Of a DNA stretch of 64,000 bases, positions 1-3,690 are shown piece after piece. Both the position numbers and the translations under genes were made by a program. Within the stretch, counting starts at the first letter, position 1; every line of letters starts with the position of its first letter. Origin of the DNA: an uncultured Chloroflexia bacterium (GTDB lineage: Bacteria > Chloroflexota > Chloroflexia > QHBQ01 > JADMIH01); contig CAWCNY010000002.1 in assembly GCA_963797095.1 (NCBI GenBank), positions 1,280,001 to 1,344,000 of the forward strand. Reading direction: 5' to 3'. The notes under the pieces were generated by a model that worked only from the letters and a program-made list of their open reading frames with translations, ran no database searches and had not been told where the DNA came from.

Positions 1-111
1 ACTCGAACCCTCGACCCGGCCGTTAGTAGCGGTAACCATCAGCCACCGGCCCCCGTGGGGCAAATACCGGTAATGGCTTTAAACCTGCTCTGCCATCTGA
101 GCTACGTCCCC
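1..111 (-). tRNA. tRNA-like gene (anticodon ACT after removing a 51-nt insert at 33-83), 3' end cut off by the window edge
   Basis: Minus strand: GGGGACG-TA-GCTC AGATGGCA GAGC-A-GG|51 nt|CCG CTACTAA CGGCC-GGGTC-GAGGG TTCGAGT. Removing the insert restores a perfect GGCCG/CGGCC anticodon stem. Confidence 0.75.
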
Positions 112-182
112 TGGGTTTGGACGAAAGACGAAGGACGTAGGACGATGGTTGTCGTCCAGGGTCTTGTCTAGCGTCCGGTTGT

Positions 183-428
183 CAGGAAGGAAATAGTCAA
201 TATTTGCTTTCAGGAATTGCCCGGCAGTGCCGGACCATTGCATTAATGGGTAACCTGAATGCGCCGTCCCAGATCCTTCACCGATGTTCGATGGTGGCCC
301 TCTATCGCGCCGAGCGCCGTAGGCACGTCCGGGCCTACGGACGGGAATTGAACCCGCGTGTTACCTGCGTACTCAACTACGACCTGCCGCCATGAGATAG
401 CCGGTGCCGACCGGCCGACCATCTTCTG
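183..428 (-). ncRNA. Structured RNA with a circularly permuted tRNA domain (YrlA/Y RNA-like candidate)
   Basis: Minus-strand order: T arm GCGGG TTCAATT CCCGT (357-341), closed acceptor-like hairpin CCGTAGGC-8 nt-GCCTACGG (340-317), D-like arm GCTC..GAGG (315-299). The ends can pair (GATGGTCGG with TTGACTATT). Boundaries approximate. Confidence 0.55.
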
Positions 429-434
429 ATAATT

Positions 435-534
435 GGAGGAAAGCAAGCAGTCAAAGCACGCGTTGGGCCTGCGGACGCGTTACCCGCAGTTATGGTTGCG
501 AATGATACCCCATTGGCAACGTACCGCTTTCTCC
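435..534 (-). ncRNA. Putative ~100-nt structured RNA, or the 5' domain of the 183-428 RNA
   Basis: Terminal pairing GGAG-AAAGC/GCTTT-C-CTCC; internal hairpins GTTGC..GCAAC and CTGCGG..CCGCAG; TTGACT near the 3' end; no credible ORF. Confidence 0.4.
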
Positions 535-543
535 TGTATGTAT

Positions 544-678
544 TGGGGATGGCAGGATTCGAACCTGCAAGAGCTTGTGCTCACTCGTTTTCAAGACGAT
601 AACCCTCAGCCTTCGGCCCCCATGGGGCAAGGTATGGTGACGGTGTATTAGCGCGTTTGCCATTTCCGCCACATCCCC
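544..678 (-). tRNA. tRNA with TGA (Ser) anticodon and Leu-like body, interrupted by a 51-nt insert (600-650)
   Basis: GGGGATG-TG-GCGG AAATGGCAAA CGC-G-C|51 nt|TCGT CTTGAAA ACGAG-long variable arm-GCAGG TTCGAAT CCTGC-CATCCCC-A. Confidence 0.8.
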
Positions 679-691
679 ACGATTATTGTGT

Positions 692-809
692 TGGAGCGCC
701 CGATAAGAATCGAACTTACGGTAACCATCAATCCGGCGGCCCTGGAGGTTCTTGAGGTCCTGGAGGGCAAAGATTGGAGACGGGTGCTCTCCAATCGAGC
801 GTCGGGCGC
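692..809 (-). ncRNA. Anticodon-less tRNA-like RNA with encoded CCA; anticodon arm replaced by a Y-RNA-like hairpin
   Basis: GCGCCCG/CGGGCGC-T-CCA acceptor, GCTC..GAGC D arm, GTAAG TTCGATT CTTAT T arm. Between D and T arms: CCGT..CAATCT TTGCCCT-loop-AGGGCCG CC GGATTG ATGG TTA. Confidence 0.75.
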
Positions 810-810
810 A

Positions 811-887
811 TGGTGCTTGGGGTGGGGGTTGAACCCACGACCTCCTGCTTTTCAGACAAGCGCTGCTACCAACTGAGCTACCCAAGC
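811..887 (-). tRNA. tRNA-Phe(GAA)
   Basis: Cloverleaf, loop CTGAAAA, encoded CCA. Confidence 0.93.
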
Positions 888-992
888 GGGCAAACATGAA
901 ACGTGAGGACGAAGGATTAGATTACGAGTGACGAATGACGAATGACGAGTGATTACGCAATACGCAGTACGCAATAGGTCCTGTCTCACGAT

Positions 993-1067
993 TGGTCTGG
1001 ATGGAGAGGATCGAACTCCCGATCTCTAGCGCCCAAGGCTAGCGTGTTCCCGCTACACTACACCCAG
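993..1067 (-). tRNA. tRNA-Pro(TGG)
   Basis: Cloverleaf, loop CTTGGGC, C1:G72, A73, CCA. Confidence 0.92.
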
Positions 1068-1107
1068 ATATGGTTATATCTCGTCCATCGTTCTTCACCG
1101 TTCGTTG

Positions 1108-1183
1108 TGGCGGCCCGTAGGGGAGTTGAACCCCTCCTTTCGACATTGACAGTGTCGCGTCTCGTCCACTCGACCAACGGGCC
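1108..1183 (-). tRNA. tRNA-Asp(GTC)
   Basis: Cloverleaf, loop CTGTCAA, G73, CCA. Confidence 0.92.
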
Positions 1184-1256
1184 AGTTCGATTTTGGATTT
1201 TAGATTGGGGATTTTGGATTGAAGTCGTAGCAATTCCGAAATCTGAAATCCGAAAT

Positions 1257-1332
1257 TGGTACAGGGGGGCAGATTCGAACTGCCGGCCACTCGCGTCCGA
1301 GGCGAGTACGCTTACCACTGCGCTACCCCTGT
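1257..1332 (-). tRNA. tRNA-Pro(CGG), atypical A1:U72
   Basis: ACAGGGG/CCCCTGT-A-CCA acceptor, loop CTCGGAC. Confidence 0.88.
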
Positions 1333-1351
1333 ATGCATGATTTATTTCTTG

Positions 1352-1422
1352 TTCCGGGGCAAGGATTCGAACCTCGCTCTGCCGGTTCAAAGCCGGCGAT
1401 CTTACCGCTGGACGACCCCGGA
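1352..1422 (-). tRNA. tRNA-Gln(TTG)
   Basis: TCCGGGG/CCCCGGA acceptor, loop CTTTGAA; CCA not encoded. Confidence 0.9.
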
Positions 1423-1485
1423 AGGATGATGATGACGGGGACGATGCAAGAACGTAAGCGTTGCCGACTATCGGCTACTTCCTTT

Positions 1486-1563
1486 TGGTGAGCGTTGGAG
1501 GACTTGAACCTCCGGCCTCCAGGTTCGCGGCCTGGTGCTCTGATTCCACTGAGCTAAACGCTC
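1486..1563 (-). tRNA. tRNA-Arg(GCG), C33
   Basis: CCAGG CCGCGAA CCTGG anticodon arm, full cloverleaf, CCA. Confidence 0.88.
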
Positions 1564-1597
1564 GTGTTGTCTGTGCTCTTGTCCATGGCCCACCGGG

Positions 1598-1668
1598 CAG
1601 TGAGGGAGGGAGTCGAACCCCCATGGACCGATTAACAGTCGGTTATCTTACCTTTAGATGACCTCACT
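1598..1668 (-). tRNA. tRNA-Asn(GTT)
   Basis: AGTGAGG/CCTCACT-G acceptor, loop CTGTTAA; CCA not encoded. Confidence 0.88.
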
Positions 1669-1686
1669 ATTGTCTTGTTATGCGGG

Positions 1687-1772
1687 CGGGTCGGGTGGGA
1701 TTTGAACCCACTTGCGTCCAAGACGCACTTGTTTTACAGACAGGCCCGGCTACCCGTATCCGGCTCCGACCC
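1687..1772 (-). tRNA. tRNA-Tyr(GTA), G73
   Basis: Loop CTGTAAA, long variable arm TGCGTC-TTG-GACGCA, T arm GTGGG TTCAAAT CCCAC. Confidence 0.87.
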
Positions 1773-1858
1773 AAGTTGTTGCGGTTGAAAGATGATTATT
1801 GGCGAGTGACGAGTGACGAATGACGAGTTCTGGAAATCGGCAATCTAAAGTCCGCGAT

Positions 1859-1934
1859 TGGTGGACAGCCAGGGATTTGAACCCCGAACATTCTCGGTGT
1901 AGGCGAGACGCTCCATCCGTTGAGCTAGCCGTCC
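1859..1934 (-). tRNA. tRNA-Val(TAC), C33
   Basis: TCTCG CCTACAC CGAGA, cloverleaf, CCA. Confidence 0.88.
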
Positions 1935-1947
1935 ATTGGAAGGGCGC

Positions 1948-2023
1948 TGGTAGGGTGTGCGGGGATCGAACCCGCGATCTACTCTTTGAAAGAGAGTTAT
2001 CCTGACCACTAGACGAACACCCC
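1948..2023 (-). tRNA. tRNA-Glu(TTC)
   Basis: Loop CTTTCAA, cloverleaf, CCA. Confidence 0.92.
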
Positions 2024-2034
2024 ACAGGGTTGAT

Positions 2035-2112
2035 TGGTAGCGCATGAGAGATTCGAACTCCCGGTCTCCAGGCTGAGAACCTGGCGTCCTGGGCCAGCTA
2101 GACGAATGCGCC
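2035..2112 (-). tRNA. tRNA-Glu(CTC)
   Basis: Loop TTCTCAG, cloverleaf, CCA. Confidence 0.92.
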
Positions 2113-2192
2113 GTGTTGTTACGGACGAAGGATGGCGGTTTGCCACCTGCTGTTCTTTCGTCGTCCGTCTTTAGTATTTTGTCCGCAGAAAG

Positions 2193-2264
2193 AGGTGCCG
2201 AGGGGAATTGAACCCCTGGTTAGCCGGGTTGCAGCCGGCCGCCTTACCACTTGGCTACGGCACC
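2193..2264 (-). tRNA. tRNA-Cys(GCA)
   Basis: Loop CTGCAAC, U73. Confidence 0.92.
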
Positions 2265-2271
2265 GCTTGGG

Positions 2272-2347
2272 TGGTGGAGCAGGGGAGATTCGAACTCCCA
2301 TCTTCCTCGTTGCAGGCGAGACACTCTGCCATTTGAGCTACTGTCCC
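2272..2347 (-). tRNA. tRNA-Ala(TGC), C33
   Basis: G3:U70, A73, loop CCTGCAA, CCA. Confidence 0.9.
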
Positions 2348-2418
2348 GTTTTGGTAGTCGGTAGTCGGTAGGCGGTAGTCAGATGGTATTTTACTGATAA
2401 CTGGCTGCCGAGCTTTTG

Positions 2419-2492
2419 TTTCGCGGAGCGGATTCGAACCGCTGGTCCCCTGGGTCACAGTCAGGTGCTTTTGCCGCTAAGCTACCGCGAAC
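2419..2492 (-). tRNA. tRNA-His(GTG), G-1 with A73
   Basis: Loop CTGTGAC; G-TTCGCGG/CCGCGAA-A. Confidence 0.86.
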
Positions 2493-2573
2493 ATGTGGTT
2501 AGACGATAGACGATGGACGAAAGTAAAGGTGAGCTTTCGTCGTCCGTTGTTCGTTTTTAGTCTGATGCACCGG

Positions 2574-2644
2574 TTCCGTGTCAAGGATTCGAACCTCGTT
2601 CTGCTGGTTCAGAGCCAACTGTCCTACCGTTGGACGAACACGGA
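2574..2644 (-). tRNA. tRNA-Gln(CTG)
   Basis: TCCGTGT/ACACGGA acceptor, loop CTCTGAA. Confidence 0.9.
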
Positions 2645-2747
2645 ATATGATGGATCCTTGGATACTGCGTAGTGCTTATTTCGTATTGCATGTCGGTGCG
2701 AGATTATTCCGCACTCTATACTCCGCATTCCGCATTTGAGTGTGGGG

Positions 2748-2821
2748 CGCACCCAGAGAGATTCGAACTCCCGGCCCGCTGGTTCGAAGCCAGCTGCTCT
2801 GTTCCACTGAGCTATGGGTGC
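2748..2821 (-). tRNA. tRNA-Arg(TCG)
   Basis: Loop CTTCGAA, cloverleaf. Confidence 0.92.
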
Positions 2822-2872
2822 AGGATAGTGCGTATTGCGTACTGCTTATCGCTTACTTCGCATATACAGATT

Positions 2873-2948
2873 TGGTTGCGGAGGAGGGACTTGAACCCTC
2901 GATCTGGTCATTATGAGCGACCCGCTCTTGCCGCTGAGCTACTCCGCA
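2873..2948 (-). tRNA. tRNA-Met(CAT) (Met/fMet/Ile2 not resolved)
   Basis: Loop CTCATAA, TGCGGAG/CTCCGCA-A-CCA. Confidence 0.9.
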
Positions 2949-3013
2949 ATGGTGGGTGAGAGACGCAGGATGAAGGATGAAGGATGAAGGATGAAGGATT
3001 AAGGATGATAGCG

Positions 3014-3090
3014 TGGTACCGGAGGAGAGATTCGAACTCCCAACGTCTGCGGTCTGAGCGCAGTGTGTCTACCAGTTGCACCACTCCGGC
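3014..3090 (-). tRNA. tRNA-Leu(CAG) with short variable loop
   Basis: CTGCG CTCAGAC CGCAG, then only ACGTT before the T arm; A73, CCA. Confidence 0.87.
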
Positions 3091-3189
3091 ATATCTTAGT
3101 GACAAATGACGAGTGACGAGTGACAAGTGACTGGATAAGCAGTAAGCACTAAGCAATAGGTCACGTATCACGTATCACGTTTCACGGGT

Positions 3190-3264
3190 TGGAGCGGTAG
3201 TAGGGATTCGAACCCTCATCTCCTCCATGGCGCGGAGGTGCTCTGCCGGTTGAGCGACTACCAC
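3190..3264 (-). tRNA. tRNA-Gly(GCC), G32/C33
   Basis: CCTCC GCGCCAT GGAGG; U73, CCA. Confidence 0.86.
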
Positions 3265-3305
3265 ATTTTTGCGGATTGGCGTTTTGGGGGTTTCTTCCGC
3301 AAGGG

Positions 3306-3377
3306 CACAAGCGGTAGGATTTGAACCCACATCCCACAGTTTTGGAGACTGGTGCTCTCCCATTGAGCTACGCTTGT
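3306..3377 (-). tRNA. tRNA-Trp(CCA)
   Basis: Loop CTCCAAA, G73. Confidence 0.9.
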
Positions 3378-3614
3378 ATGCAGCGAGCAGACCAGGCATG
3401 CCTTCACGCTTGGGCTTTACGATATGTGCGGCCCGCGCTGGACTCCAGGCACACCTGGCGTGTCTGCTCACTCTTTTTATTCGCGATCCATCTTCTACTG
3501 TTAAGGTGCACGGTCTGCCGTGGACTGCCGGCGCTTTCTTTGTTTTATTGTCCTATTCGGGTTATTTACTTCTATGTCGCCCGTCACGGCTTTCCGTCTG
3601 CATCGACAGATGCA

Positions 3615-3690
3615 TGGTGCCCCCGGCAGGGTTCGAACCTGCGCCTCACCGATTAAGAGTCGGTTACTCTTCCTGCTGAGTTACAGAGGC
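3615..3690 (-). tRNA. tRNA-Lys(CTT), first tRNA of the array
   Basis: Loop CTCTTAA, cloverleaf, CCA. Confidence 0.92.

Follow-up and report, generated by a model that had tools for sequence, protein, structure and literature searches.

Bacterial Y RNAs are known tRNA mimics and, as published, resemble circularly permuted tRNAs with neither a free CCA end nor an anticodon loop. In the part of the 2014 survey on which we draw (PMC4201824), the hallmarks of the YrlA type are a GNCGAAN0-1G motif near the 5' end, likened there to the contact sequence of Ro60, GGUCCGA, a conserved YUAY at the opening of the V-loop, T and D arms like those of a tRNA set around an acceptor-like stem-loop that is closed, and a position at most 4 kb from rsr on the same strand. 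The same part reports that Deinococcus forms a polycistronic tRNA-Y RNA precursor, that the YrlA of Mycobacterium smegmatis acquires an open acceptor only via RNase P cleavage, after which it is in two pieces, and that candidates overlapping tandem tRNA genes were dropped from the survey. Here we describe, from a stretch of 64,000 nucleotides (nt) of an uncultured Chloroflexia bacterium (assembly GCA_963797095.1, contig CAWCNY010000002.1, positions 1,280,001 to 1,344,000; hereafter the window) and from the sequence adjoining it, five tRNA-shaped genes that are interrupted by a hairpin module and lie upstream of rsr, the gene for the Ro60 homologue Rsr. They are very probably Y RNAs built on the true tRNA topology, in which the hairpin would be retained as an Rsr-binding arm and, judged from sequence alignments, the whole RNA is a circular permutation of the published YrlA.

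The window corresponds to G000:C2:1280001-1344000, and coordinates outside it are given as G000:C2. An earlier note on this DNA had reported two interrupted tRNAs in the window, each with a 51-nt insert ending in GGTTA. Both are real, with the inserts running on the minus strand from 83 to 33 and from 650 to 600, but three further copies had been missed, one at 692-809 and two outside the window. The module scores below were obtained with R1, a covariance model built from the five modules of this genome.

1..111, minus strand: copy C (Y-tRNA C), whole gene G000:C2:1279988-1280111, extending 13 nt beyond the window start
29..78, minus strand: predicted Rsr (Ro60)-binding module of copy C, R1 58.4 bits, E 1e-9 (whole-genome search)
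544..678, minus strand: copy B (Y-tRNA B), from reading of the sequence; called tRNA-Ser(tga) by ARAGORN once 51 nt are deleted
596..645, minus strand: predicted Rsr-binding module of copy B, R1 59.7 bits, E 5e-10
692..809, minus strand: copy A (Y-tRNA A), from reading of the sequence and a motif match
718..785, minus strand: predicted Rsr-binding module of copy A, with an extended inner hairpin, R1 48.4 bits, E 2e-7
G000:C2:1279782-1279898: copy D, just outside the window start
G000:C2:1279205-1279324: copy E, just outside the window start
G000:C2:1276981-1278642, minus strand: rsr, encoding TROVE and Ro60 vWA domains

The five modules can be aligned with one another, and each consists of an outer helix of 7 base pairs (bp), an internal loop, an inner helix UUGCCC/GGGcCG containing a bulged C and a U.G pair, and a short loop, with UUAY following. 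In copy C, for example, the outer helix P1 is followed by the inner hairpin UUGCCCC-ACG-GGGGCCG with its bulged C, and then by GGUUAC. The motif TTGCCC..GGGCCG..TGAKGGTTA, derived from the two inserts, occurs three times in the window and not once in 100 shuffles, so the resemblance is not due to chance. Loose regular expressions for both types of motif were dropped in favor of the covariance model, as their matches elsewhere in the genome were about as numerous as those of reversed controls (8 versus 12 and 14 versus 6), and in the 6.0-Mb genome R1 found exactly the five modules. The breaks fall after position 28 in copy C and after position 27 in copy B, in agreement with the sites near 27-29 proposed before, and removal of the inserts does leave 5-bp anticodon stems, GG+CCG/CGGCC with the loop CUACUAA in copy C and C+UCGU/ACGAG with the loop CUUGAAA in copy B. 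The equal length of the two inserts, which the earlier note had pointed out, turned out to be incidental, as R1 matches in relatives span 47-69 nt; the hairpin at the anticodon-stem position is 45-70 nt long. Folded singly, the two 51-mers gave z-scores of -1.4 and -1.2, which are not significant, and the structure rests on comparative data.

The bodies around the modules have the parts of a tRNA, namely a 7-bp acceptor stem with free ends, in some cases with CCA, a T arm in each and usually a D arm. The body of copy C is of class I, with G3:U70 and A73, its hairpin following position 28 and its anticodon-like loop reading CUACUAA. That of copy B is Ser-like and of class II, to judge from its D arm and long variable arm; its T (5/5) and acceptor (7/7) stems are paired, its module follows position 27, and its loop is CUUGAAA. 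Copy A has an acceptor stem (GCGCCCG/CGGGCGC, 7/7), a D arm, a T arm (stem GUAAG/CUUAU, 5/5; both stems by eye) and an encoded CCA, with a longer module where the whole anticodon arm would be; copy D and Ardenticatenaceae-type relatives have no D arm. With the Rfam tRNA model (gathering score 29), copy C (full gene) scored 41.8 bits and copy E 45.1, while copy B scored 25.4 on its 3' part alone, under the gathering score, and copy A gave no match. ARAGORN made no call in intact B or C, but with introns allowed it reported C as i(32,51), and after deletion of the 51 nt it called a 74-nt tRNA(act) in C and an 86-nt tRNA-Ser(tga) in B; this test is weak on the boundaries, since with the deletion shifted by -6 to +6 the program still made a call, in 13 of 13 cases for C and 12 of 13 for B. 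A crude script found a 5-bp T stem and 7-bp acceptor pairing around 33 of the 35 R1 matches at E<0.01 in the rsr loci described below, a few of these assignments being doubtful; it took in all matches of a set of 64 except the partial match L046:1-25, and copy A, which it missed on a technical ground, passes by eye.

The G3:U70 of copy C is what we take to be the alanine identity pair, also used by tmRNA; a conserved alanine mark was rejected, as pair 3:70 among relatives is GC in 9, AU in 5, GU in 5 and CG in 2. The loop CUUGAAA(A) is common to copy B (window 586-600), an ordinary Y RNA of the locus, Y4 (L004:13620-13640), and the third Y RNA of mycobacteriophage ET08 (L085:2400-2420), and because of this recurrence the apparent Ser UGA anticodon of copy B may be a conserved Y RNA element and not a relic anticodon.

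The module is closely linked to rsr. The encoded protein matched TROVE (1.6e-47) and the Ro60 vWA domain (6e-64), as well as Xenopus Ro60 (1yvp, 6e-140) and Deinococcus Rsr (2nvo, 1e-122), and rsr is the sole TROVE gene in the genome. All five modules lie 601-2076 nt upstream of rsr and on its strand. Similarity searches with R1 of 80 rsr loci from other genomes (81 with our own, L004-L084), the nearest of which belong to Chloroflexia metagenome-assembled genomes with 70-76% protein identity, revealed a further 30 matches below E 0.01, spread over 16 loci and nearly all of them within a tRNA scaffold. When our own locus is included, 32 of the 35 matches share the strand of rsr and precede it by 119-2076 nt, the three exceptions (one in L051 and two in L016) being downstream. 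In a sample of 151 genomes of the class, 16 carried the module and 26 carried TROVE; TROVE was present in 15 of the 16 module genomes, the exception being 73% complete, and the module in 1 of the 125 TROVE-negative genomes, counts that include the unpublished genomes G013, G031 and G097, without which TROVE is found in 12 of 13 module genomes. Within the genus, the module and TROVE occurred in the same 9 of 24 genomes, and, apart from our own genome, the two were on one contig in all 14 genomes of the sample that have both.

We also found a minimal hairpin of the Ro-binding type, UUGCCCC-AAA-GGGGCCGAA, that abuts the Shine-Dalgarno sequence of rsr (L004:12655-12671, minus strand, equal to G000:C2:1278655-1278671). 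The same hairpin was flagged at the rsr ribosome-binding site in 9 of the 29 related rsr loci examined, in addition to our own, and this position suggests that Rsr may repress its own translation via a Y RNA mimic.

Comparison among relatives supports both the module and its placement. In a model-fitted alignment of 64 matches, both sides had changed in 5 of the 7 pairs of the outer helix, and the inner helix was conserved in sequence, as would be expected for a protein contact. In A3, a MAFFT alignment of 21 full-length RNAs made independently of the model and headed by copy C, 93% of the cells pair, compared with at most 54% in slid controls, and both-side changes were seen in 20 of 36 pairs (9.9 ± 1.7 in shuffles), with the bridging pairs 27:43 and 28:42 both covarying. 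When the 2 nt before the module were joined to the 3 nt after it, a perfect 5-bp stem with a 7-nt loop was formed in 18 of the 21 RNAs, but in 1 of 21 in the reversed-strand control. The loops of these 18 carry the signature Y32 (18/18), U33 (18/18), R37 (18/18) and A38 (17/18). Positions 34-36 use all four bases, with 14 triplets, including ACU and AUU, among 18 near-identical bodies, and the UGA triplet is also found on bodies without the long variable arm.

Y RNAs of ordinary build are interspersed with the modules; there are at least six between them. One of this build is Y1, and another five lie downstream of the window start. In addition, one segment may be related to the permuted form.

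443..531, minus strand: Y1, a Y RNA of ordinary topology, from a motif listing; its minimum free energy fold pairs both ends
283..392, minus strand: candidate YrlA-like domain, uncertain; fold z-score -0.89, not significant

In the ordinary Y RNAs, 5' GGYGGUaCG pairs with 3' CUUGACYRCC, leaving a bulged A, and GGGUUAYC follows 7-8 nt on; in Y1, 5' GCGGUaCG pairs with 3' UUGACUGC, also with a bulged A, and then comes GGGGUAUC. The module is equivalent to the terminal stem of such an RNA with its ends joined by a loop, since its 3' half (GGGCCG, 7-8 nt, GGUUAYC) resembles the 5' strand of a Y RNA and its 5' half the 3' strand. Each tRNA-shaped unit ends 2-6 nt before the 5' strand of an ordinary Y RNA. 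In the candidate domain at 283-392, a T-arm-like hairpin precedes a closed hairpin of 8 bp, as would be the case in a permuted YrlA domain; it gave no match in Rfam.

Mycobacteriophage ET08 has three Y RNAs upstream of its Ro gene, the middle one having the full YrlA layout, and provided a link between the two forms. The 3' halves of the modules with GGUUAYC align with the 5' parts of the three ET08 Y RNAs and of our own ordinary Y RNAs, GGTTA.C being invariant in 9 of the 9 aligned sequences; the 3' half of module C aligns to the 5' part of the ET08 YrlA, and module B shares about 20 of 25 positions with the third ET08 Y RNA (by eye). Conversely, the D arm and 3' strand of the ET08 YrlA align with the D arm and the 5' half of the module here. 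Because of these two alignments, the tRNA-shaped RNAs are homologous to YrlA, in unpermuted order. The YrlA RNAs of Salmonella, M. smegmatis and mycobacteriophages, insofar as they are covered by the parts of PMC4201824 and bioRxiv 10.1101/312249 used here, agree with our RNAs in lying just upstream of rsr on the same strand, in having a Ro-binding strand of the GNCGAA/GGNCCG type followed by YUAY, and in their D and T arms, which resemble those of a tRNA, and their 7-bp stem of the acceptor type; the alignment with the ET08 YrlA is direct and segment-wise. In the five copies, the bulged helix with its GGUCCGA-like contact strand is retained, GGGcCG/UUGCCC being conserved in the 64 aligned matches; copy B has GCCGAAG, which fits GNCGAAN0-1G, and the YUAY element after the strand is UUAC, UUAU or UUAA.

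The two forms differ in the order of their parts. YrlA as described in those sources ends in the Ro-binding stem, has a loop-closed acceptor-like stem and the order T, acceptor stem, D, and has neither a free CCA end nor an anticodon loop. The RNAs here, in contrast, end at the acceptor stem, often with CCA or CC encoded, their Ro-binding stem is closed by a loop, and most copies keep an anticodon-like stem-loop, so that the order, which is not that of YrlA, is acceptor 5', D, closed module, UUAY, (anticodon-like arm), T, acceptor 3'. Yrn1 of Deinococcus radiodurans, so far as the part of the literature consulted describes it, is likewise a Y RNA bound by Rsr, and its D-like, anticodon-like and T arms are arranged as in a tRNA, but its Ro-binding stem is formed by its ends and replaces the acceptor stem, whereas here it branches from the anticodon stem. 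The RNAs share with tmRNA and viral tRNA-like structures an acceptor/T domain with a free 3' end fused to a non-tRNA module; unlike tmRNA, they have no mRNA-like part, tmRNA models gave nothing better than E 6, and G3:U70 is not conserved.

Several observations weigh against reading the five genes as Rsr-binding Y RNAs with a retained hairpin. The exact GNCGAA motif is confined to copy B and the rsr leader (GCCGAAAG), copies A, C, D and E having GCCG followed by other bases (GCCGNNGG), and searches with the Rfam Y RNA models returned a single sub-threshold match, Deinococcus_Y_RNA with 22.7 bits (gathering score 80), located on the T arm. A search for sequencing runs that hold this stretch gave two soil DNA runs with small shares and no RNA run. 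R1 was trained on our own five copies and alignment A2 was fitted to R1, and the members of A3, in which the T stem is 100% and the D stem 98.8% paired, were picked for perfect T and acceptor stems, so these two helices are paired by selection. A split anticodon stem with covariation and a canonical loop also fits a removable insert, and the block might thus be a protein-spliced mini-intron, cut at both ends by an endonuclease and sealed by RtcB, which under stress would yield a tRNA with or without a free mini Y RNA. The 18 of 21 relatives in which computational excision gives a 5-bp stem and 7-nt loop, with tRNAs that ARAGORN can call, and an RtcB gene with an intein about 6.7 kb downstream in the same orientation speak for splicing, and a short block near positions 27-29 with an RtcB gene nearby recalls the non-canonical introns of archaea and eukaryotes, which have a bulge-helix-bulge and are processed by EndA and RtcB. 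Here, however, the two junctions flank the foot of a single helix of 7 bp, in a three-way junction, and since they are at one end of a single helix a bulge-helix-bulge is excluded; the two 3-nt bulges and the 4-bp helix between them were not found at the junctions. No PF01974 (tRNA_int_endo) domain was detected at E<=0.01 in the 93%-complete genome, whereas four archaeal controls matched. Moreover, the block is a conserved module, with the sequence conservation typical of a functional RNA-protein site, and it replaces the anticodon arm in copy A and at least three relatives (L006:9662, L011:1022 and L030:1072), in which there is no arm to restore and excision would therefore leave no tRNA. The spliced products would not be coherent decoders, given 14 triplets among 18 near-identical bodies; the anticodon does not match the identity of the body, and a housekeeping tRNA-Ser(UGA) is present elsewhere in the genome. 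A group I tRNA intron was also rejected, as the inserts matched no Rfam intron or ribozyme family, group I included, at E<=1 or E<=10, and 51 nt is too short. Of the two explanations put forward by the earlier note, a protein-spliced mini-intron that conditionally activates the tRNA is therefore without support and appears highly unlikely, whereas a retained protein-binding arm fits both the linkage to rsr and the homology to YrlA.

The hairpin may also be retained for a partner other than Rsr, or serve mainly as a processing or stability signal in a transcript of tRNAs, Y RNAs and rsr. Because the 5' strand of an ordinary Y RNA starts 2-6 nt after each unit, tRNA enzymes could define the ends of the Y RNAs, and the polycistronic Deinococcus precursor, as reported in the part of PMC4201824 cited above, would offer a parallel. 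We nevertheless regard this as improbable, for the module co-occurs with and adjoins TROVE, agrees in sequence with the Ro-binding strand of YrlA, and has a minimal counterpart at the ribosome-binding site of rsr, both in our own locus and in 9 of the 29 related ones, which points to Rsr. That the genes are decayed tRNA pseudogenes with an acquired repeat or mobile insertion is suggested by their place where an accessory tRNA array, itself a duplicate of the housekeeping set, comes to its end, and by a Mutator-family transposase gene nearby. The block, however, is found nowhere else in the genome and has been conserved, with compensatory changes, in Chloroflexota, Armatimonadota, other lineages and predicted viral contigs. 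The covariation in A3 contradicts decay, and this is the explanation to which we give the least credence.

If the genes encode Y RNAs with a retained Rsr-binding arm, the array, the Y RNAs and rsr would be read as one long transcript, from which RNase P and 3'-end tRNA processing would release the tRNA-shaped units, and this release would also set the ends of the ordinary Y RNAs, which begin at a distance of 2-6 nt from each unit. Rsr, whose gene lies 0.6-2.1 kb downstream, would then bind the inner helix, with the hairpin staying in the mature RNA, while the tRNA body with its free 3' end may engage a tRNA-recognizing partner, as has been proposed for YrlA. In the split-stem subtype, a canonical anticodon loop (Y32-U33-NNN-R37-A38) would be displayed beside the bound Rsr. 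It is conceivable, though rather doubtful, that such RNAs, having a free CCA end, an L-shaped body and a displayed loop with a freely variable triplet, are working hybrids and not passive scaffolds. As a nuclease bait or sensor, the displayed loop might attract anticodon-loop nucleases, so that Rsr, and through it an exonuclease or the nearby RtcB repair ligase, is held at the damage; as a carrier, the charged RNA might bring Rsr to the translation machinery, like a tmRNA with a cargo of its own; and in a further variant the hairpin might be excised when needed, so that a tRNA is formed along with a free mini Y RNA.

In the literature searched, parts of which formed the basis of the comparison, we found only the permuted closed-acceptor form and the Deinococcus form, and no description of a Y RNA that ends like a tRNA and carries its Ro-binding hairpin internally, an earlier mention in reviews or supplements being possible. 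The exclusion of tandem-tRNA overlaps from the 2014 survey may explain why this layout was missed. The family described here would be the unpermuted counterpart of the known tRNA mimics, with real tRNA ends, a Ro60 site off the anticodon stem and often an anticodon loop, and would provide the proposed descent of YrlA from tandem tRNAs with a concrete intermediate. With such an RNA, it becomes directly testable whether a Y RNA is charged, receives CCA and is processed by RNase P, and Rsr would be tied to accessory tRNA arrays and to RtcB. For annotators, "intron-containing" or uncalled tRNAs beside TROVE genes may be Y RNAs.

The tRNA array is located directly upstream of the Y RNAs and rsr, all on one strand, and leads straight into about 11 Y RNAs and then rsr. 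On the rsr strand, the order continues from rsr to a gene for an HNH endonuclease, further tRNA genes and the RtcB gene.

811..3690, minus strand: array of 21 ordinary tRNA genes, from ARAGORN and the Rfam tRNA model
L004:7738-8307: HNH endonuclease gene, between rsr and the RtcB gene
L004:9739-10770, opposite strand to rsr: Mutator-family transposase gene, between rsr and the RtcB gene
L004:3416-5935, minus strand, that of rsr: RtcB ligase gene with intein (RtcB 4.7e-91, Intein_splicing 5e-22)

The locus (window 811-3690 and G000:C2:1272500-1274600) holds 25 of the 71 tRNA genes of the genome. Except for Ile(UAU), all its anticodons are also represented among the 46 dispersed tRNA genes, and there is no Thr tRNA in the locus; by a rough check, CCA is encoded by about 13 of the 21 array tRNAs in the window. 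At least five tRNA genes were found within about 10 kb of rsr in 49 of the 81 loci, with up to 29 in one, and the array-bearing loci span Chloroflexota, Verrucomicrobiota and other lineages, so the link of tRNA arrays to Ro60 genes looks general. Our array resembles the L-arrays (Santamaria-Gomez et al. 2021, PMC8421152), according to the part of that paper used, in being an accessory set, here of about 21-25 tRNAs, that duplicates the housekeeping tRNAs and has rtcB nearby. A difference is that neither Y RNA nor TROVE is named in the main text on the L-arrays, whereas here the array joins Y RNAs and rsr.

When viral contigs were scanned for the exact pattern, 79 stretches were obtained, of which the majority are probably due to chance; with R1, six matches in five stretches remained at E<=0.01. 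On a few predicted viral contigs, the module is embedded in a tRNA and is accompanied by tRNA arrays and by homologues of Ro60 with 46-55% identity.

L092, L102 and L105 (one 427-kb IMG/VR contig), L099, L117 and L155: viral stretches with these features

Within our own locus, the spacers between RNA genes consist of 7-nt tandem repeats (GACGAAG-like, GGATTTT, GTAGTCG and GGATGAA).

Window 112-200, 900-960, 1190-1255, 2350-2390 and 2955-3000: repeat spacers

The segment at window 112-260 folds far better than its shuffles (z-score -4.05).

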